Shown here in pieces: positions 9,788 to 19,045 of a stretch of 44,959 bases of DNA; the first letter of the stretch is position 1, and each line of letters begins with the position of its first letter. The stretch comes from Acidimicrobiia bacterium. Its GTDB lineage: Bacteria > Actinomycetota > Acidimicrobiia > Spongiisociales > SHLN01. The notes beneath the pieces were generated by a model. It had not been told where the DNA came from. It saw only the letters and a list, made by a program, of their open reading frames with translations, and searched no databases. The DNA is taken from assembly GCA_041619515.1 (NCBI GenBank), contig JBFKDW010000016.1:1-44959 (forward strand), given 5' to 3'. The position numbers and the translations under genes are program-made.

Positions 9788-10588
9788 CTAGGCGGGAACC
9801 ACGTCGGGGCGGCGTTTCATCTCGCCGCTCGGCTCCCCGGTCCCACCGAAGGCAGGGCAGATTTCCTGGAAGGAGCACCAGTCGCACAAACGCGACTGTC
9901 GCGGGGGATAGGACTGGCGGGCTTCAGCCCGGATGATGGCATCCCACAGGGCCCGGACCTGGCGCTCCATGGCGTCGAGCTTCTGGTCGTCGACGTCGAG
10001 TGAGTACATGGTGGGGCCGTTCAAGTAGAGCAGCCGCAACTGCACGGGGGCCCGTCCGAAGTGCTTGCGGGTGAGGAGGGCATAGATCTTCAACGCGAAG
10101 AAGGCGGTGAGAGCGTATCGCTCCGGCGGTGCTTTCCCGGTCTTGTAGTCGGTGACGATGAGGTCGCCGTGCTCGTCCTCGTCGATCCGGTCGAGGATGC
10201 CCCGCACCTGGACTGTGTTGATCTCCTCGAGCAGGTCGAGCTCGCAGTCGACCGGGGCGATCCGGCGAGGATCCTCCACCGAGAAGTAGTTGGCGAGCAG
10301 CTCCATGCTTTCGATGCCCCAGGCGCGCTCCTCCTCGACCGAGGAGAACATGTCCGGGTACTCGACGTCACGGACCTCCGTCCAGGCCTGGCGGAACAAA
10401 TCGAATAGCCGGTCGGGCGTTCGGTTGTCCGCCTCCAGTCCGTAGAGGCGCTGCAAAGCGAGGTGGGCCGTCGTGCCGCGAGCCTGGTACACGGTGGCCG
10501 GCTCCTCGAGCCGATCGATCGCGCGAAACTTGAACAGCTGCGGACACTGCTTGAAGTCACTCAGCCTGCTCGGTGAGACTCGATCCAT
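9788..10588 (-). CDS. Stand-alone PD-(D/E)XK (RecB/Cas4-like) nuclease with probable Fe-S cysteines
   Basis: SPSRLSDFKQCP, RGILDRID, VTDYKTGK, CDWCSFQEICP; ATG 10588 has TATAGT 7 nt upstream. Confidence 0.85.
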   Translation of the reverse strand: MDRVSPSRLSDFKQCPQLFKFRAIDRLEEPATVYQARGTTAHLALQRLYGLEADNRTPDRLFDLFRQAWTEVRDVEYPDMFSSVEEERAWGIESMELLANYFSVEDPRRIAPVDCELDLLEEINTVQVRGILDRIDEDEHGDLIVTDYKTGKAPPERYALTAFFALKIYALLTRKHFGRAPVQLRLLYLNGPTMYSLDVDDQKLDAMERQVRALWDAIIRAEARQSYPPRQSRLCDWCSFQEICPAFGGTGEPSGEMKRRPDVVPA

Positions 10589-10699
10589 ACCCGGCACTAT
10601 ACGGGACCAGAGTGACACGTTTGTAATTACCGCCCGAGTTCCCGTCGAGCCGCCTCCGATATGAAGGCCTGCGGCACCTTCGGTGCACAGGCCGACCTC

Positions 10700-10773
10700 C
10701 GCGAAATCTCGTGCTATGGCGCGAAAATAACCTACGGATCTCATTTGACCGGGAGCGGGAGGGGGCGTACATT
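10700..10773 (+). promoter_or_regulatory. Sigma70-type promoter P1 with upstream tandem CGCGAAA boxes
   Basis: TTGACC 10745-10750, 17-nt spacer, TACATT 10768-10773; CGCGAAA at 10700 and 10720. Same layout as the promoter at 16016-16089. Confidence 0.8.
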
Positions 10774-10780
10774 CATCTGC

Positions 10781-11400
10781 GTCGCCCGGGAAACCGGGTG
10801 CCCCGGCCGGATGTGAGAGCAGAAGGCGGGCTTGCGAATCGAGAGGTTCGTGAGAATCCCGGAAGGGCGAAAGCCCGACCGGGCCTCCGGAGGGGTGTAA
10901 CAGCCTCGGCCGGAGACCTGGGGAGGTGTAAAAGCCCGACCAGGGCCCTGCGATACCGGATCGTGGGGAGTGGTTGCCCGGGCCCCGATCGGGTCAGGCG
11001 GATGCGCTCAGGCGCAGACGACTGCCGGGAAACCACGCCTCGTTCGCCGTCTCGGCGGAGAATGAGGGTTGGCGAGGGTGGAGCCCGAAAGGGTGAGGCC
11101 TCAGCCGACAGCTGATGGCCGCAAGGTCACCAGTCCAGCGACGCTGGAACGTTGGAGCGCAAAACGCTCCGGCGCCGCAAGAGACACGGGCTCACGGGCA
11201 CCGATCTCGGGCGGAAACAGCCGGCACGGCACCCGCAAGGGGGCCGCCCGGCAGCGGAAAGATCCCGAGAGGGTTGAGGTTACGGCCGAGGCTCACTCGG
11301 GATTTCCGCGTGTGTGGGCCCAACATCGGGCACCGAATTCATCGCGATGCTTCGGCGTCCTGATGCGTCTCCCCAGAGACGGCCGCTTGCATTGCGGGAG
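10781..11400 (+). ncRNA. Putative large structured non-coding RNA (about 600 nt), family unassigned
   Basis: Follows P1. Near-continuous stem-loops with loops GAAA 10790, GAGA 10815, GAGA 10841, GAAA 10869, GAAA 11087, GCAA 11121, GCAA 11235, GAGA 11267 and C(UUCG)G 11351. Many G-U pairs and a long-range helix 11188-11196/11313-11321. No credible ORF. Ends are approximate. Confidence 0.7.
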
Positions 11401-11424
11401 CGCCCGATAGAACAATGACGGGAG

Positions 11425-11970
11425 ATGAGAGGTGTCCAAGCCAGCCTGCCGTCTCAGGACGTGGTCGACGGGCTCGGGCCAATGCCCGACCTCGAGCAAC
11501 TGGTTCGCGCTCACTGGGCACCCACCTATCGCGTGGTTGTGGCGCTGGTTCGCGATCATGGCATGGCAGAAGACATCACCCAAGAGTCCCTGCTCAAGGC
11601 GTGGAAAGCCCTTCCCACCTTCCGGGGAGATGCCTCGCTGCGCAACTGGATCCTCCGGATCGCCCACAACACCGCCATATCCGCGCTGCGACGGCGCAAA
11701 CCAGAGTCCAGGGAGCCGTGGAATCTCCCCGAGTCCCTATCCGGCCCTGATGCGTCAGACCTCGTCGCCGACCGGCTCATGATGGAGCAGTTCCAGACGG
11801 CGCTGTCGGCCCTCTCCCCGAGCACGCGGGCCATAGTGGTGTTGCGGGAAGTCGAAGGCCGATCGTATGAGGAGATCGCCGAGATCGTTCGATTGCCGCT
11901 CTCAACGGTGCGGACCCGGCTCTTCCGGGCGCGCAAGGAGCTGGCCATCGCCCTCAAGGGCTGGCGCTGA
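11425..11970 (+). CDS. ECF-family RNA polymerase sigma factor
   Basis: Region 2 AEDITQESLLKAWKALPTFRGDASLRNWILRIAHN; region 4 SYEEIAEIVRLPLSTVRTRLFRAR. The start may instead be 11482. Confidence 0.92.
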   Translation: MRGVQASLPSQDVVDGLGPMPDLEQLVRAHWAPTYRVVVALVRDHGMAEDITQESLLKAWKALPTFRGDASLRNWILRIAHNTAISALRRRKPESREPWNLPESLSGPDASDLVADRLMMEQFQTALSALSPSTRAIVVLREVEGRSYEEIAEIVRLPLSTVRTRLFRARKELAIALKGWR

Positions 11971-12290
11971 TGCCGTGGCTCCATCCCTTCCGCAGACGGC
12001 TCATCGCCTGGGCCGACAATGTCGACGATCCGCGCATCCAGGCGCACGTCGAGCAGTGCGAACGGTGCCTTGGCATCGTCGAGGAGGCGGGAAGATTCGA
12101 TGACATTCCGCTGGGAAACGTGCTCGGAGCGCTGCTACGGGCGCCGGACTCACTGGAAGAGGAGCTGGTGGAGCGCGCCGAGATCGCCAGAAGCAACCGG
12201 GCATCTCTCGAGATTCTCGGGGGCCTCGCCGTCCTGCCGTGGGAGACCCTCCAGCTCATGATCGACCAGCGGAAACCCGCGGATGATTGA
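11970..12290 (+). CDS. Putative zinc-binding anti-sigma factor (ZAS)
   Basis: HVEQCERC matches HxxxCxxC; translationally coupled to the sigma gene. Confidence 0.7.
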   Translation: MPWLHPFRRRLIAWADNVDDPRIQAHVEQCERCLGIVEEAGRFDDIPLGNVLGALLRAPDSLEEELVERAEIARSNRASLEILGGLAVLPWETLQLMIDQRKPADD

Positions 12291-13008
12291 TCGGTGGGTA
12301 TGGGCCGTGCTTGCCATCACGGCCGGCCTGGCGGCCGGCAGTGGGGTTGGATGGCTGGTCAGAAGGCGGCTGCAACGGGAAACCAACCGCCCGGTCTTGC
12401 GTCGCGTCGGCAATGCTTCGGGGGCATTTCTCTTCTGGTTCTTCACTCTGGTCGGGGTGGTGTTTGCCGTCGGGATGGTCAGCCCGGAAACCCTGCGGCC
12501 GCTGCCCCGTCAGGTGCTCGACTACCTGCCTCGCGTGCTGGCAGCCGGCCTCATCGTCATTGGTGGATGGGCGTTGGCGATAGTGGCGTCCAGTGTGCTC
12601 GCCGCCGCCCTCAGCCGGGCGACCGGGCGCCTAGAGCGTGAGTTCGAACGGGTCATCCGATACGCGGTGCTCACCCTGGCGGTCATTCTTTCCCTGGCGC
12701 AGCTTGGGGTGAACGTCACCGTGGTGACGGTGCTGGTCGCCGTCGTCGCGTTGACCCTCGGCGCATCCATCACGATCGTCATCGGGCACGGCGCTCGGCA
12801 GATATCCGGGGAGATCGCGGCCGGCCGCTACCTGCACAGCTTCATCGACGTCGGCGACTATGTGCAAGCGGGCGACTACCAGGGCGTCGTGGTGGGCATC
12901 CATCCCGCCACGCTCGAGCTCGAGGACATCGATGGCGCCAGGATGCATGCCCCCTACAGCAAAGTGCTCTCCGCCGGACCGACGATCCGGCGCAATGCTT
13001 CCTCCTAG
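12283..13008 (+). CDS. Small-conductance mechanosensitive channel-like membrane protein
   Basis: About 5 hydrophobic segments (YLPRVLAAGLIV, LAQLGVNVT) followed by the MscS beta-domain pattern DVGDYVQAGDYQGVVVGI. Confidence 0.7.
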   Translation: MIDRWVWAVLAITAGLAAGSGVGWLVRRRLQRETNRPVLRRVGNASGAFLFWFFTLVGVVFAVGMVSPETLRPLPRQVLDYLPRVLAAGLIVIGGWALAIVASSVLAAALSRATGRLEREFERVIRYAVLTLAVILSLAQLGVNVTVVTVLVAVVALTLGASITIVIGHGARQISGEIAAGRYLHSFIDVGDYVQAGDYQGVVVGIHPATLELEDIDGARMHAPYSKVLSAGPTIRRNASS

Positions 13009-13077
13009 CCGCCCGGTCCGTGGCATATAGAGTTGACGGCCCCGCAGGGCCGTCAACTCGCTGATCTCCTTCGGTTC

Positions 13078-13896
13078 TCAGGTCTCCTGGTCGCCCTTGA
13101 TGACGCCCTTGACACCGTCGACACCGGATGCGGCCACGTCGCGGACCGCGTGCACCGCCGACTCACCGATCTTCTCGGCGGCTTCGAAGGCTCCGGTCGC
13201 AGCCGCCGAGGCGGCGTCTTCGACGCTGAGCCCCACCTTCTTGGCTCCGTCGATGGCGCCACTGAGGGCAGCAGTCGTCACCTTGGTGACGTCGACTCCC
13301 ACCTCGCCGGCCCCGGCTACGAGGCCGCGGGCGGTGCTGCGAACGGTCTCGAGCACGTCGGCGCCCACCTCCTTGGCGCCGTTGACGGCTCCGGACATCG
13401 TGGCCGATGCGGTCCCGATGACATCGCCGCCGAGATCCTTCGCCGAGGTCACGACGGTGTGAGCGAGAGCGTAGGCTCCTTCGCCGAGACCGACGCCGAC
13501 ACTCTGGGTCGTGCTTATGACACCCTCGGCGATCGCCCCCGCCGTCGAGGTGAGGTCCCCGCCTATCTCACCCGACCCTTTCAGGGCGGCCCGGACGGTA
13601 TCCGAGATGACGCCCACCGTAACGGTGGCAACCTCGCCGACGCCCTGCAGCAGACCTACCACCAGGCCCTTGCTGGTCTTGATCAACCCGGTCCCGACCT
13701 CGTTGACGGCTGAGAAGGCGCTGGTGGCTACCTGGGAGAGGACACCGGTGGCCCCGGAGGCTACCTCTCCGGCGCCTTTCAGAGTTGAGACGGTGGCATC
13801 CTTAACGGTCTCGGCGGTGCCTTCCACCACTGCACCGGTGCCACGGAGCACTTTGAGGACTCCGTTCTTAACCTTGGTAACTGGTCCATCTGCCAT
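13078..13896 (-). CDS. Hypothetical 272-aa Gly/Ala/Val/Thr-rich protein made of 22-residue repeats
   Basis: ATG 13896 with GGAGG SD; about 11 tandem 22-aa units such as GAKEVGADVLETVRSTARGLVA. The upstream part of the track ORF is antisense to DUF2332. Confidence 0.8.
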   Translation of the reverse strand: MADGPVTKVKNGVLKVLRGTGAVVEGTAETVKDATVSTLKGAGEVASGATGVLSQVATSAFSAVNEVGTGLIKTSKGLVVGLLQGVGEVATVTVGVISDTVRAALKGSGEIGGDLTSTAGAIAEGVISTTQSVGVGLGEGAYALAHTVVTSAKDLGGDVIGTASATMSGAVNGAKEVGADVLETVRSTARGLVAGAGEVGVDVTKVTTAALSGAIDGAKKVGLSVEDAASAAATGAFEAAEKIGESAVHAVRDVAASGVDGVKGVIKGDQET

Positions 13897-14025
13897 TCGA
13901 CTACCTCCCTGTTGCTGCTGGCCTACCTGGGACGCCTCCGAGCACCCAAACGTCGCGGATTTCGCCGTCAGGGGCCCCCGCGCCGGGCCCAGTAGCCACC
14001 GGGCATCCCCGTGGCACAATACCGG

Positions 14026-15081
14026 ATGGCGGCTTCCGGGGATGGCATATCCATCGCAGAGAGGTTTCGGGAGTTTGCGGTTGCCCTCGCCGACGAGGCA
14101 CCGCTGTATTCGCATTTGTGTGAAGCGATTGTGGGCGACGATGAGCTCCTGGCTCTCGCCGGAGGCGTGCTTCCCGGCCAGCCGCCCCCCAATATGCTGT
14201 TTGCCGCCGTCCAGTTTCTGCTGTCGAACGGCCCGCCTCATCGGCTCGCAGACTGGTACCCGGCACTGTCGGGTGGGCCTCCATCCGGCGGCGACCCCTT
14301 CCCCGTGTTCCGGGAGTTCTGCCTGACCCATCGCGTGGAACTGGCGGAACTGATTGCCTCCCGCCGAACCCAGACCAACGAGGTAGCCCGCTGCCTGGCC
14401 CTGCTGCCCGCCTTCGCCACCGTTGCCGGGAGGGCCGGCCGACCCTTGTCGCTCATCGAGGTCGGGTCGAGCGCCGGGCTGCTGCTCGCCTTCGACCGCT
14501 ACCACTACGAGTACGGGAGCGCCCGGTGGGGTCCTCCGGACGCGCCGCTGCGACTCTCCACAGAGCTCCGTGGTCCGGTGCCACCGCTGCCGGCTGCGGA
14601 CATGCGTATCGCGAGCCGTGTGGGCATCGACCTCCATCCGGTCGACGTCACCGACCCAGTGGAAGTCCGGTGGCTCGATGCACTCGTTTGGCCCGGCCAT
14701 GAGGAACGCCGTGCCCGTCTGCGCCGTGCGATCGATGCGGTTGCGTCCGATCCGCCACCCGTGTTGGCGGCCGATGCTCTCGCCGTGATCGAAGAGTTGA
14801 TCGCAGCTGTGGACGACAGGGCAATGCCGGTGGTGTTCCACAGCTTCGCTCTATTCCAATGGACCTCGGCCCAGCGGGCCGATCTCGAGTCGCTGCTCCG
14901 GGGGGCCCGCCGGCCCGTCACGCGGGTGTCGCTCGAGTGGTTCGGGTATCAGCGAAACCTACCGTTCATCAAGCTGATTCAGTACCAGGGCGGATCCGAG
15001 CAGGTCGAGACCCTGGGCCGTGCCCATCATCACGGGCGCTGGCTGGAGTGGGGGCCGGACGAGGCGATCAGCGGTTCGTAA
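14026..15081 (+). CDS. DUF2332 family protein
   Basis: APLYSHL, RRTQTNEVARC, LIEVGSSAGLLLAFDRY, RVGIDLHP, WLDALVWP, AHHHGRWLEW. Confidence 0.85.
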   Translation: MAASGDGISIAERFREFAVALADEAPLYSHLCEAIVGDDELLALAGGVLPGQPPPNMLFAAVQFLLSNGPPHRLADWYPALSGGPPSGGDPFPVFREFCLTHRVELAELIASRRTQTNEVARCLALLPAFATVAGRAGRPLSLIEVGSSAGLLLAFDRYHYEYGSARWGPPDAPLRLSTELRGPVPPLPAADMRIASRVGIDLHPVDVTDPVEVRWLDALVWPGHEERRARLRRAIDAVASDPPPVLAADALAVIEELIAAVDDRAMPVVFHSFALFQWTSAQRADLESLLRGARRPVTRVSLEWFGYQRNLPFIKLIQYQGGSEQVETLGRAHHHGRWLEWGPDEAISGS

Positions 15082-15952
15082 TCGTCAGATCGGGCAGGTA
15101 CGTCCGAACCGTGGGGTAGGCGAGCTCCACTGCCGGCTCCGCCGCCAGCTTCTCGAGCAGAGACCTCCAGAGCGTGGTGTCGATGTGGCGGCGAGATCTC
15201 ACCGGGATGATCACCCGGCCGGTGACCATCACCCCGCTGTCGCGCACCGCGACATACGTGGTCGGAGTCAAGTGCGTGTAGCGGATGCGGTACTCGGTGG
15301 CGGCGTCGCGCAGCGCTCGGCGGATCTCCTCGGAGGCCATGCTGGGAGCGTGCTCGGTGAGGGTTTGCTGCATCATCTGCTCGGCCAGCTTCCAGTCGGA
15401 TTCGAAGGTCACCAGCATCGGAACCTCGTGCCATATGTAGGGGAATCCCTCCGTGTAGTTGGCGAGCGGCTGGGAGAACAGCAGCCCGTTTGGAATCTGG
15501 ATGATGCGGCCCGTCGACTGATCAGCCTCGACCCACCCCTTGATCTCCAGCATCGAGAACCGCTGCGACCGCACGTTGACGACGTCGCCCGCCTGGCCCC
15601 CGATCTCAACCCGGTCACCGACCTTGAAGGGGCGCCGCAACAGGATGTACCCCCACCCGGCGAAGTTCCGCAAGATGTCGGCCAGGGCAATCGCCACGCC
15701 GGCTGACACCACCCCGATCCAGGCCCCGATGTTGCTGACCTGCAACCACACGAAGCTGACCGCCACCAAAACGATGAAGGTGCCGCCGTAACTGGTCACC
15801 TTCTGGGTGCGGTACCAGATCTCGGTGTCGTCGACGCGTTTGCGAACCAGCCGGAGAATCACGGTTCGGAGGATGATTGCCCCGATGATCACCCCGATCG
15901 TCACCAGCAGGCGGATCTGCCACTGCGACGGATCGGTGAAGAAGCTGCCCAT
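15068..15952 (-). CDS. MscS-family mechanosensitive ion channel
   Basis: 3 TM segments then ILRNFAGW..RRPFKVGDRVEIGGQAGDVV, QSTGRIIQIPNG, NYT, ELAYPTVR. Confidence 0.9.
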   Translation of the reverse strand: MGSFFTDPSQWQIRLLVTIGVIIGAIILRTVILRLVRKRVDDTEIWYRTQKVTSYGGTFIVLVAVSFVWLQVSNIGAWIGVVSAGVAIALADILRNFAGWGYILLRRPFKVGDRVEIGGQAGDVVNVRSQRFSMLEIKGWVEADQSTGRIIQIPNGLLFSQPLANYTEGFPYIWHEVPMLVTFESDWKLAEQMMQQTLTEHAPSMASEEIRRALRDAATEYRIRYTHLTPTTYVAVRDSGVMVTGRVIIPVRSRRHIDTTLWRSLLEKLAAEPAVELAYPTVRTYLPDLTITNR

Positions 15953-16015
15953 ATCCGGTGGAGCGTAGATCCGTGGAGTCGCGAAGCGCGGCATCAAAAT
16001 GCCCGCGCCAGCCCC

Positions 16016-16089
16016 CGCGAAATCTATTTGTAGGGCGCGAAAACTAGGTAGTCCCTGAGTTTGACGGGGGAGTCCGACTGGCGTAGATT
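16016..16089 (+). promoter_or_regulatory. Sigma70-type promoter P2 with upstream tandem CGCGAAA boxes
   Basis: CGCGAAA at 16016 and 16036; TTGACG 16061-16066, 17-nt spacer, TAGATT 16084-16089. Spacings identical to P1. Confidence 0.8.
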
Positions 16090-16096
16090 CGTTTAC

Positions 16097-16374
16097 GTGT
16101 TGGGGGAAACCCCGGCACACTCCAAAGGCCCGCAAGGGCCGGAGGAGCGGCTTCGTCGGGCACCCCGCAAGGGGAACGGCCAAGAGGGCCTTCGGGCTCA
16201 CTCGGACGCTGGCGAAGCCACTACCTCGCCGGACGACTTCGGTCGGCCGGGGAGGTCCCTCACCGGGAGGCTTCGGCCAAACGGAGAGGATCGGAGTGGC
16301 CTTCGGGTCACTTCGGACGGGAGCCCCGGAGGGGCGAAGGTTTCGGCCGACGCTCAACCGGGGCTTTCCGCGTG
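16097..16374 (+). ncRNA. Putative structured non-coding RNA (about 275 nt), family unassigned
   Basis: Eight hairpins, all capped by canonical tetraloops: GAAA 16106, GCAA 16132, GCAA 16167, UUCG 16191, 16238, 16272, 16302 and 16342. Enclosing helices 16149-16157/16211-16219 and 16318-16329/16358-16370. The next gene is convergent, so this is not a 5' UTR. Confidence 0.78.
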
Positions 16375-16446
16375 CCGGGCCGTTCTCGCCCAGGGCCGAC
16401 TCCGATCGTGAGTCTCCCCTCCAGGATGCTGCCGGGCGGCGGGCTC

Positions 16447-18390
16447 CTATAGGCCCATGTTGGCCAGGAATGCCTCGTTGTTTGGCTCGCGGCCCAAGAA
16501 CTCAATCAGGAGGACGTCGGCGTCCTTGGTCCCTCCCTGCTCGAGGATGGTCCGGCGATAGGCCCGGCCGACCTCGGGGTTGAGGATGCCCTCGGCCTGG
16601 AATCGGCTGTACATGTCGTCGCCGAAGACCTTCGACCACAGGTAGCCGTAGTACCCGGCGTCGTAGCCGCCCATGAGATGCCCGAAGCTGGCCAGGAAGA
16701 ACGTTCCCTCCGGGAACGGGAGCTCGTTGACTTTGTACGCCTGGCGATCGAGGGCGTCGAGATCGCGCACGTCTGCATCGTCGTGCAACATGAGATCGAG
16801 CGTTCCGAAATAGGCCTGCCGCAGGTTGGCGGCGGCTATGTTCACGTCGCGGGCCGCCACCAGCTGTTGCACGAGCTCGTCGGGGATGCGGTCCCCGGTC
16901 CGGTAATGGCGAGAGAACGTGGCCAGCACCTCGGGCTCCCAGGTCCAGTGCTCCATGATTTGCGAGGGAGCTTCGACGAAATCCCACTCGGTGTTCGCTC
17001 CCGAGAACCGCACCATCTCCGCTTTGGTCAACGTCTGGTGGAGGATGTGTCCGAACTCGTGGAACAGGGTGAGGACTTCCTCGTGGCGCAGCAGCGATGG
17101 AGCATCTGCGGTCGGCTTGGTGAAGTTGGCGACCATCGCGGCAACCGGCCGGATCGTCTCTCCGGCCAGGTTGCGATGGCCGGCCACCAGGTCGAAGGCG
17201 GCGGCGTGCCCGTACTTGCCCTCACGCGGGAACAAGTCCATGTAGAAGTAGGCGAGATGATCGCCGCTTGCCGCATCGAGCACCTGGTAGAGCAGGACGT
17301 CATCGTGCCAGGCGGCAGCCTCGTCGACCCGGGCGTAGGTGACCCCGAACATCTCGGCGGTGATGTCGAGCATTCCGTCGATCACGGATTCGAGCGGAAA
17401 ATACTCGGCGACCTCGTACTCGTCGACGCCATACTCGTCGCGTCGGATCCGGGTGCTGTAGTAGCTCACGTCCCACTGCTGGAGGGTGTCGTCGCCGTAT
17501 TCCTCCAAGAGCATGCTTCGCATCTTGGCGTGTTCGGCCCGAACCTTTTCCTTGAGACGCGGAACCAGCTCTGAATAGAACTTCTCGACCCGCTCGGGAT
17601 CGGCCATCTTCACGTCCATGCTGTGATGAGCCCACGACTCGTACCCAACCAGCTCGGCGATGTGTCGCCTGAGCGCTAGTGCTTCCTCCAGCAGGGGCCG
17701 GTTCTCGCTGACCACCGACGTGTTCTTCTTGCGGAGCAGTTCTTCCCGGCGATGGCGGCTCGTGGCGTTCTGGAGGAAAGGGAACAGGTCCGGGTAGTCC
17801 AGCGTCACCCGATAGGTTCCCTCTGCGTCTCCCGGCTTGAGGGCGCCGATGTAGGAGTCGGGAAGCCCGTCGAGCTCCTCCCGGGTGACTTCGATGTGAT
17901 CCGTGTACGCATCGACGTTGGCCCCGAAGGCCACTTCCAATTCGACGAGGCGCTGCTTGAGCTCTTTGAGCTGGTCACGCTCGTCCGGTTTCAGCCCGTG
18001 ACCCGCCCTCCGGAAGTCCCGCATCCAGAAGTCGAGCAGACGCTGCTGCTCGGCGGTGGCGTCCGGGTCACTTTCGGCGAGTCTTCGCATGCCGGCGTAG
18101 AGGTCGGAGCGAAAGACGACCTCGATGCTCCACTTGTTCAATCTCTCCTCTTCCTCGGTGGCGGCAATCCTCACTCCAGGGTCTGGATGAACTCGGGCCA
18201 TGAAGGCGCCCTTGCCATAGGCGACCTCGATCACGGCCGCAGCCTCGTTGAGCGGCAGCAGCGTGTTGGCGACAGTGTTCTTGGCCGCGACCGCAGCGAT
18301 ACCGTCGATCAGGCGGTTGGCAGCGGTGATCGCCTCGTCGGTGATACGGGCGACGCTCTCGGCTGTGGTCCCGCGGTAGTCGTGAAGCAT
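16447..18390 (-). CDS. M3 family metallopeptidase (thimet oligopeptidase/Dcp-like)
   Basis: LFHEFGH zinc motif, DLFPREGKYGHAA, DFVEAPSQ, GGYDAGYYGYLWS, FLGREP. Confidence 0.93.
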   Translation of the reverse strand: MLHDYRGTTAESVARITDEAITAANRLIDGIAAVAAKNTVANTLLPLNEAAAVIEVAYGKGAFMARVHPDPGVRIAATEEEERLNKWSIEVVFRSDLYAGMRRLAESDPDATAEQQRLLDFWMRDFRRAGHGLKPDERDQLKELKQRLVELEVAFGANVDAYTDHIEVTREELDGLPDSYIGALKPGDAEGTYRVTLDYPDLFPFLQNATSRHRREELLRKKNTSVVSENRPLLEEALALRRHIAELVGYESWAHHSMDVKMADPERVEKFYSELVPRLKEKVRAEHAKMRSMLLEEYGDDTLQQWDVSYYSTRIRRDEYGVDEYEVAEYFPLESVIDGMLDITAEMFGVTYARVDEAAAWHDDVLLYQVLDAASGDHLAYFYMDLFPREGKYGHAAAFDLVAGHRNLAGETIRPVAAMVANFTKPTADAPSLLRHEEVLTLFHEFGHILHQTLTKAEMVRFSGANTEWDFVEAPSQIMEHWTWEPEVLATFSRHYRTGDRIPDELVQQLVAARDVNIAAANLRQAYFGTLDLMLHDDADVRDLDALDRQAYKVNELPFPEGTFFLASFGHLMGGYDAGYYGYLWSKVFGDDMYSRFQAEGILNPEVGRAYRRTILEQGGTKDADVLLIEFLGREPNNEAFLANMGL

Positions 18391-18445
18391 CCGGCAAGAT
18401 TAGCCCCGAGTGCATGCGGCTTCTGTCGGCCGTAAGATCGCTGGT

Positions 18446-19045
18446 ATGAAGTATCCGGACTCACTACTGAGCGGCGGGGAAGAGATATTGCACGCCTTTC
18501 GCCCGCATTGGAAGTCGCTCGTCATCCCGGCCGCCTGGACGCTCCTGGTCATCGTCGGTCTTGCCCTCGTGCCACGCCTCCCCGACGAGAGCTGGCTGCG
18601 CCTGTCCACCATTGCCATCCTCCTGGTGGGTTGGCTGGTGGTAGCGGTGGTCCCGGCGCTGCGGTGGTGGTTCACCCAGTTCGTCCTGACAAACGAGCGC
18701 CTCGTGCTCCGCAAGGGGATCGTGGCTCGCAGCGGCGTGGAGATTCCGCTCGAGGTCATCAACGACGTCATCTTCTCGCAGACCGTCTTCGAGCGGCTGC
18801 TCGGCTTCGGCGATCTGATCATCGAGTCGGCAGGTGAAATGGGACAGAGCCGCTTCTCCAATATCCCCAATCCCGACGGCTTTCAGGCCGAGCTCTACCG
18901 GGTCCGCGAGGACCGGGCTCGGGCTCTCACCACTGCGGAGGCGCCTTCCGACACCCTGGCCACCCTCGCCCGCCTCCATGCCGATGGAGTCCTCACCGAC
19001 GAGGAGTTCGCCTCCAAGAAGGCAAAGCTCCTCGACGAGATCTAG
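18446..19045 (+). CDS. Membrane protein with bacterial PH domain and C-terminal SHOCT
   Basis: RPHW, 2 TM segments, FVLTNERLVLRKGI, ERLLGFGDLIIESAG, LARLHADGVLTDEEFASKKAKLL. Confidence 0.85.
   Translation: MKYPDSLLSGGEEILHAFRPHWKSLVIPAAWTLLVIVGLALVPRLPDESWLRLSTIAILLVGWLVVAVVPALRWWFTQFVLTNERLVLRKGIVARSGVEIPLEVINDVIFSQTVFERLLGFGDLIIESAGEMGQSRFSNIPNPDGFQAELYRVREDRARALTTAEAPSDTLATLARLHADGVLTDEEFASKKAKLLDEI

Follow-up and report, generated by a model that had tools for sequence, protein, structure and literature searches.

Protein-sequestering sibling RNAs such as RsmX/Y/Z (GacA) and CsrB/C (UvrY) have a dedicated upstream activating site, and tandem sibling small RNAs (sRNAs) that act by base-pairing, such as LhrC1-5 (LisR), the csRNAs (CiaR), and Qrr1-5 (LuxO), are each under one response regulator. 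Other stand-alone RNAs bind RNA polymerase. Lineage-specific RNAs of the latter type exist in Actinobacteria, for which one such abundant RNA per species has been proposed (PMC11077062). The same source gives CoRP of Corynebacterium as an RNA of 516 nucleotides (nt) that is cleaved into pieces of 318 and 198 nt (PMC11077062). Ms1 is presented in PMC4191392 as a rod with a central bubble and in PMC9130861 as syntenic with genes for a HAD-IB hydrolase and an oxidoreductase; the main text of the latter contains no mention of "Acidimicrobi". Here, we describe RNA-B, an element of ~278 nt at positions 16097-16374 of the plus strand of contig JBFKDW010000016.1 from an Acidimicrobiia bacterium (assembly GCA_041619515.1); the window is the whole 44,959-nt stretch of DNA that was analyzed. 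RNA-B is very probably a real noncoding RNA (ncRNA) gene of a family that is undescribed, as literature searches found no description of it. Neither the wider family nor RNA-A, a sibling gene in the same window, appears in a preliminary description of this DNA.

The family resembles 6S, Ms1, and CoRP in that its members are predicted to be stand-alone, promoter-driven, and highly structured RNAs of 200-520 nt with a lineage-specific sequence, and RNA-A (~530 nt) and RNA-B (~280 nt) are within the size range of CoRP (516 nt) and Ms1 (~300 nt). Unlike those RNAs, the family has no Rfam match and no rod with a bubble, and it occurs in tandem arrays of up to seven members with a two-box upstream motif; polymerase binding is, for this family, a prediction. 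Synteny also differs. The neighbors are genes for an MscS-type channel, an M3 peptidase, and a PD-(D/E)XK nuclease rather than the HAD-IB hydrolase and oxidoreductase of Ms1, and the window has no tRNA gene of the kind that marks CoRP, with which synteny and not sequence was compared. Relative to the Rsm and Csr RNAs, the paralogs likewise share an upstream motif whose spacing to the -35 hexamer is constant and have a series of hairpins, variable in number, that leads to a putative terminator, whereas no CsrA was found in the genome, all eight capped loops of RNA-B are GNRA or UUCG rather than the GGA of Csr and Rsm, and the RNAs are longer. With LhrC, the csRNAs, and Qrr, the family shares tandem arrays, a common promoter motif (the two genes in the window have the same two-box module), and a pyrimidine-rich segment that could meet Shine-Dalgarno sequences. 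Its RNAs are two to five times longer than these, lack a conserved single-stranded seed, and hold the pyrimidine segment in a covarying helix. A complex structure backed by covariation, a lack of coding capacity, and a function that is not evident from context are also features of raiA (PMC10861870), OLE, ROOL, and GOLLD, in contrast to which the family has no match in Rfam, no pseudoknot that we found, a modular string of hairpins, and a distribution in one order only.

The structure of RNA-B is far from what its composition predicts. The preliminary description listed eight hairpins capped by GNRA or UUCG tetraloops, and each is present at its position. A hairpin scan of 16097-16377 that accepted stems of at least three pairs found exactly eight, with loops at 16106 (GAAA), 16132 and 16167 (GCAA), and 16191, 16238, 16272, 16302, and 16342 (UUCG). 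In 2000 dinucleotide-preserving shuffles of RNA-B, the mean was 0.96 capped hairpins and the maximum was 6, so that none of the 2000 reached eight. The hexamer CTTCGG occurs five times as compared to 0.15 per 281 nt across the plus strand of the window, and none of 2000 shuffles reached five. Clustering of UUCG loops beyond chance was thus correctly noted, with the amendment that there are five such loops and not four; a further cttcgg, at 16311, belongs to a stem. When the scan was slid across both strands of the window, the sole other hot spot was at 10600-11200 of the plus strand. The plus strand of RNA-B folds at -180.8 kcal/mol (z-score -5.8), exceeding by 29 kcal/mol the fold of the minus strand (-151.8 kcal/mol; z-score -3.2).

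The consensus fold of RNA-B in eight relatives has 91 pairs, of which 12 have compensatory changes, and is a chain of eight local hairpins with one three-way junction and 3 putative pairs between the 5′ and 3′ ends. Two longer helices proposed at the outset recur in this fold, one closing the multiloop (ggcttcgtcgg/ctggcgaagcc, 16149-16159 with 16209-16219) and one terminal (16318-16329 with 16358-16370). A long-range stem in the minimum free energy fold of this genome's RNA-B is not kept in kin.

RNA-B has the features expected of an independent transcription unit. Downstream of a sigma-70-type promoter, conservation is unbroken to the sequence ...CCGCGTG and ends right after the 3′ hairpin. 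In an alignment that includes the flanks, the promoter hexamers TTTGAC and TAnnnT are kept in nine genomes, the 17-18-nt spacer varies, and GCGCGAAAAC is conserved in all eight rows of kin that reach that part. Transcription is predicted to start near 16096-16097. Using BLAST, RNA-B was found in six of seven genomes of the same genus and in two of two genomes of a second genus, and its own genome has one full copy, the other matches being chance alignments of 15-33 nt. Insertions and deletions of 1, 2, 3, and 33 nt among eight kin exclude a reading frame, and no open reading frame (ORF) that overlaps RNA-A or RNA-B has a Pfam match. The flanking genes are both on the minus strand, as reported; there is no ORF downstream on the plus strand and the next gene is convergent, which agrees with the original argument that RNA-B is not a leader or riboswitch. 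Conservation from promoter to 3′ hairpin, compensatory changes, and G-U pairs that fit the plus strand only bear out the claim of a stand-alone, stable RNA. Our best explanation taken as a whole, which joins an independently transcribed, promoter-driven gene for a stable structured ncRNA to the family and to the mechanism proposed below, appears to be slightly favored.

The other hot spot corresponds to RNA-A, which has a fold z-score of -8.8 and is conserved in seven of seven genomes of the genus. Its consensus fold from six sequences has 174 pairs, 30 of them compensatory, and whole hairpins are inserted or missing in some genomes. RNA-A is upstream of RNA-B on the same strand and 1.3-4.8 kilobases (kb) from it in six genomes of the genus, including this one, and its 3′ end has a match at 11223-11311 (36 bits, E 4e-5) to R2, the model of the 3′ domain of RNA-B described below.

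Family members also have a promoter in common. The consensus of the promoter module is two CGCGAAAWC boxes ~20 nt apart, 16 nt, the -35 hexamer, 17 nt, and the -10 hexamer. The two-box module precedes family members in eight of eight loci of the genus and in 17 of 21 distant loci, often twice, and such a fixed arrangement common to members points to a dedicated regulator. Searches of five other genomes with the box pattern yielded 0-3 matches each and a control pattern yielded 0. Extra matches in genomes G042, G037, and G033 have no adjoining family RNA, save for the match in G037 beside the nuclease gene. The match in G033 (locus L184; contig C34, 3737-3766, minus strand) resembles the boxes of that genome's RNA genes and has no family RNA; ~230 nt downstream is an ORF that we take to resemble the N-terminus of a class II ribonucleotide reductase. 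A regulator that reads the boxes may control more than the RNAs. In the genome under study, the third exact match to CGCGAAAAC-16-TTGAC, on contig C143 at 1930-1959, was considered as an RNA gene, but it lacks a -10 hexamer at 17 nt, a 5′ hairpin, and a match to R1 or R2, and is probably a chance occurrence.

Two covariance models, R1 for the 5′ domain (16096-16257) and R2 for the 3′ domain (16290-16373), were used to search 151 genomes of the order, of which 110 are of good quality. R1 has matches in 32 of 151 and R2 in 89 of 151 genomes, or 66 of the 110 good-quality genomes. By family, the R2-positive genomes number 7 of 13 in f1, 16 of 19 in f2, 13 of 19 in f4, 6 of 7 in f6, 17 of 19 in f7, 5 of 7 in f8, 6 of 8 in f9, 14 of 18 in f10, and 4 of 18 in f12, with none in f3 (0 of 2), f5 (0 of 2), and f11 (0 of 18). 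Family f5 is positive by R1 only (2 of 2), wholly on account of two unpublished genomes, G017 and G028; one locus of G028 also provides one row each in the 5′- and 3′-domain alignments, and no other claim rests on these two genomes. In the class sample, all 25 R2-positive genomes are from this order and R2 has no match in families outside it (f13 onward). The RNA family is confined to one order of Acidimicrobiia, and the results suggest that this order is Acidimicrobiales.

Copy number varies. Genomes that are R2-positive have 1-7 matches, and most loci outside the source genome's own family carry a tandem of two or three copies. The highest numbers, five to seven, are in one genus; arrays of four to seven R2 matches are present in its genomes G090, G096, G102, G114, G132, and G150, and arrays were also observed at loci L072 and L076. 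Two units of identical score are 531 nt apart in G114. These arrays suggest that the RNA genes were recently amplified in tandem in that genus.

Covariation supports both domains. In the alignment of 31 sequences of the 5′ domain, 93.8% of cells are paired and 39 of the 50 pairs show double changes; the 202 cells with such changes compare to 56 in shuffles and 16-41 when partners are slid. In the 34 sequences of the 3′ domain, 94.2% of cells are paired, 23 of 31 pairs changed on both sides, and there are 119 double-change cells versus 36 in shuffles and 6-18 with slid partners. Support differs among helices. The two helices of P2 have double changes in four of four and five of five pairs, and its inner helix (helix 3) is just 82% paired. 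Helices of the three-way-junction domain are 94-100% paired, with double changes in 9 of 11 pairs of the closing helix, and the helix of the 3′ module is 96% paired, with double changes in 13 of 20 pairs.

Invariant positions are located in mismatched helices and their UUCG loops. Arm b of the three-way junction is the best-conserved stretch of the family and the source of BLAST matches in other families; its invariant core (GAG-A-GGG...CUC-A-CUC) has an A.A mismatch, the UUCG loop, and a central G.U that is present in 25 of 30 rows. The hairpin of the 3′ module (CCCCGG...CCGGGG, inner part GGGCG-AA-GGU-UUCG-GCC-GA-CGCUC) has an invariant core that consists of the CCCG stem, AA/GA internal loops, and one G.U pair found in 32 of 32 rows. 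A simple scan found no canonical terminator at the 3′ end of RNA-B. The 3′ module is a family hallmark and probably an intrinsic terminator. Across the family, hairpins are gained and lost as whole units. Hairpin P6 is a clear case of RNA growth by hairpin duplication: it is missing from three of eight aligned relatives and matches positions 130-159 of R1, the part that corresponds to P5 (17.4 bits, E 0.0025).

Table 1. Coordinates of features in the window (nt, nucleotides)
Feature	Position	Strand	Basis
PD-(D/E)XK nuclease gene (PF12705); directly before RNA-A, divergent	9788..10744	-	Pfam E 4e-37
RNA-A promoter: CGCGAAATC 10700, CGCGAAAAT 10720, 16 nt, TTGACC 10745, 17 nt, TACATT 10768	10700..10773	+	genome pattern search
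RNA-A, ~530 nt: GAAA-capped 5′ hairpin, chain of GNRA/UNCG hairpins, 3′ module as in RNA-B	10781..11311	+	
MscS-type channel gene	15068..15952	-	
Distal upstream box of RNA-B, CGCGAAATC	16016..16024	+	20 nt upstream of proximal box
Proximal upstream box of RNA-B, CGCGAAAAC	16036..16044	+	pattern match; exactly 16 nt to -35 hexamer
Sigma-70-type promoter of RNA-B, TTGACG-17-TAGATT	16061..16089	+	promoter scan: 1 site vs 0.1 in shuffles
P1 hairpin, 9 pairs, GAAA loop	16097..16118	+	consensus fold; both-side changes in 7/7 pairs of its helix in family alignment
P2: CUCC/GGAG outer helix, inner GGCCC-GCAA-GGGCC hairpin	16120..16144	+	consensus fold
Three-way-junction domain: 11-pair closing helix, arm a (CCCC-GCAA-GGGG), arm b	16149..16219	+	consensus fold
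Arm b: irregular helix, A.A mismatch, central G.U, UUCG loop	16177..16208	+	consensus fold
P5 hairpin, UUCG loop	16223..16256	+	consensus fold; double changes in 4/5 and 3/3 pairs of its two helices
P6 hairpin, UUCG loop; lineage-specific duplicate of P5	16258..16289	+	consensus fold
P7 hairpin, 11 pairs, UUCG loop	16291..16317	+	consensus fold; double changes in 10/11 pairs (3′-domain alignment)
3′ module: long terminal hairpin, U-rich 3′ strand, CGCGUG tail	16318..16374	+	R2 model 109.4 bits
M3 peptidase gene	16447..18390	-	
bPH_2-SHOCT gene	18404..19042	+	

We propose the following mechanism. A dedicated DNA-binding regulator would read the paired CGCGAAAWC boxes and switch on the RNA genes. 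The irregular 3′ hairpin probably serves as a terminator and as protection for the 3′ end, and between promoter and 3′ hairpin is a string of ultra-stable tetraloop hairpins that grows and shrinks by whole hairpins. Because neighboring genes are on the other strand and differ between lineages, the RNA would act in trans, as a decoy or scaffold that binds a protein and not by base-pairing. The predicted recognition sites are the irregular helices of invariant sequence, namely arm b and the similar-looking core of the 3′ module. A decoy or scaffold would account better than its rivals for the private upstream boxes, the presence of several paralogs, the modular hairpins, and the stable end. A role of this kind, as a protein scaffold or sponge, had been suggested in the preliminary description, and we rank it first on indirect grounds. 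We nevertheless put forward the claim that the RNA works by protein binding as tentative, with doubt slightly outweighing belief. Neither 6S nor Ms1 was detected in the genome, and the existence of lineage-specific RNAs in Actinobacteria therefore makes RNA polymerase the leading candidate partner. By analogy, the family could be a lineage-specific counterpart of 6S, Ms1, and CoRP, an identification we regard as speculative. Likewise, it is doubtful, though conceivable, that the family represents a fourth class of polymerase-binding RNA after these three, or else the RNA half of a ribonucleoprotein, with 1-7 sibling genes that are switched together and bound through two irregular hairpins with G.U pairs.

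Tandem paralogs with one promoter motif are also known from sibling sRNA families of the LhrC, csRNA, and Qrr type. If the family acted in this manner, one regulator would control tandem paralogs whose CUCC or CCUCC masks ribosome-binding sites, and an anti-Shine-Dalgarno-like CCUCC does start many distant members. That stretch, however, is the 5′ strand of P2, which covaries (UA 14 and CG 12 at one pair, CG 18 and UA 8 at the next), meaning that what is conserved is the pairing rather than the sequence. Unpaired runs that are conserved in the family consensus do not exceed ~4 nt, and this, together with the location of the 5′ pyrimidine stretch in a covarying helix, argues against a pairing seed. 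Lengths of 200-530 nt are also far above those of typical pairing sRNAs, and we consider base-pairing rather unlikely. The abundance of GNRA tetraloops, which could make tertiary contacts, the conserved three-way junction, and the invariant noncanonical positions would suit a self-contained ribozyme or ligand sensor. But the architecture is linear, a string of hairpins that differ in number from one paralog or species to another, and the family has just two parts in common, the 3′ hairpin and the three-way domain, the latter weak or missing in many members. There is no downstream gene to control, no long-range helix or pseudoknot was found, and the pairs that would close the folds of RNA-A and RNA-B between 5′ and 3′ ends amount to merely 2-3 base pairs. 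A catalytic or ligand-sensing role is thus improbable.

Some features could instead be those of a DNA or cis-acting element, such as a repetitive extragenic palindromic (REP) or miniature inverted-repeat transposable element (MITE) repeat, an insulator or a terminator acting in both directions between convergent genes, or DNA that regulates the PD-(D/E)XK gene. The M3 peptidase gene converges on RNA-B, with 73 nt between the 3′ hairpin and the facing 3′ end of that gene, and the family locus adjoins the nuclease gene, with the boxes in the shared divergent region. Nonetheless, a multicopy repeat, which the preliminary description had named as the outcome that would overturn it, is contradicted by the one BLAST copy in the genome and by the lack of matches in plasmids, phages, and viral contigs, the same lack that led us to reject an origin from mobile elements. 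Folding is asymmetric between strands, and reading the opposite strand would turn many of the conserved G.U pairs into A.C. Every member is preceded by a promoter of its own, the peptidase is a neighbor in close kin only, and of 101 genomes of the class, 97 encode the nuclease and most of these lack the RNA. An explanation in cis is therefore very improbable. Even less credible, to the point of being nearly negligible, is a divergent copy of a known RNA (signal recognition particle [SRP] RNA, 6S, Ms1, raiA, RNase P RNA, or transfer-messenger RNA [tmRNA]) that the Rfam models missed. Neither SRP RNA nor 6S RNA was found anywhere in the genome, and raiA RNAs are listed in PMC10861870 as occurring in Acidimicrobiia. 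The suggested Rfam search was run and gave no Rfam 15 match anywhere in the window at the gathering score; relaxing the limit to E 10 on 15900-16550 added only two chance eukaryotic matches. RNase P RNA and tmRNA are on other contigs. The Ms1 model (RF02566) has no match at the locus, and its best match in the genome, on another contig, scores 12.6 bits against a cut-off of 162. SRP RNA (RF00169, RF01854) has no match at the locus or elsewhere in this genome, which is 95.65% complete, and a normal small SRP RNA is encoded at another locus in 37 of 41 related genomes, among them five members of the genus that also carry RNA-B. We rejected RNA-B as an SRP RNA because kin have both RNAs at separate loci; most likely, SRP RNA is missing here since its contig is absent from the assembly.

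Several points weigh against a promoter-driven RNA that binds a protein. The records that cover 10600-16500 are all DNA contigs, so that the ends, abundance, and expression of RNA-B are predictions, and its partner protein is a candidate only. UUCG and GNRA loops usually serve stability and not recognition. The classic partner of sponge RNAs, CsrA (PF02599), was not found in the 95.65% complete genome. 6S and Ms1 bind RNA polymerase through a rod with a central bubble, and the fold of RNA-B has no such shape. The 6S model (RF00013) has no match at the locus (E up to 10), in the genome, or in any of 41 genomes of the order, but this silence is weak evidence because the model detects only 5 of 14 control genomes. 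Covariation was counted on alignments fitted to their own models, which favors structure, albeit with a large margin in the counts. The likeness between arm b and the 3′ hairpin is our reading of the consensus. Lastly, for a putative repeated hairpin with an AA/GA internal loop, AA or GA is the 5′ flank of 55 of 168 capped hairpins in 23 family elements, a count that has no control and excludes the genes of the window.

Neighbors of the RNA loci differ between lineages. The conserved neighbor is the PD-(D/E)XK gene, whose orientation relative to the array is divergent in 6 of 21 distant loci, and it is 0.2-2.5 kb from the nearest R2 match and divergent in the 13 genomes in which both could be placed; in a 14th, the two are on different contigs. 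Because the gene is class-wide and the RNA is restricted to one order, we read the nuclease as probably a synteny anchor and not a partner. A functional link to it, as in a defense system or type III toxin-antitoxin, is unlikely for the same reason and because the genes are divergent and not co-transcribed. With the ATG start that is listed for it, the nuclease ORF extends over the proximal promoter box of RNA-A (10720-10728). Similarity to relatives begins only at ~residue 50, which suggests that the true start is probably further downstream. A search beside orthologs of the M3 peptidase gene, proposed in the preliminary description, did find the RNA in close kin, but of 80 orthologous loci just 5, each from close kin, have the RNA close by, and we rejected a functional link to the peptidase. 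A gene encoding a bPH_2-SHOCT protein is just beyond the peptidase gene in the window and, at two distant loci (L064, 1629-2291; L069, 2217-2987), immediately follows the RNA array. The ancestral order was probably nuclease, RNAs, and bPH_2-SHOCT.

Acidimicrobiia are abundant in oceans, soils, and wastewater, and to our knowledge are almost unstudied at the RNA level. The private promoter motif and a family unmatched in Rfam point to a new regulator and an RNA-based layer of control in these bacteria. The R1 and R2 models and the promoter pattern enable annotation of genes that are now read as empty intergenic DNA or as spurious ORFs. If the RNAs do bind polymerase, they would support the proposal of one such RNA per bacterium and would do so with a binding architecture unlike the rod of 6S and Ms1.

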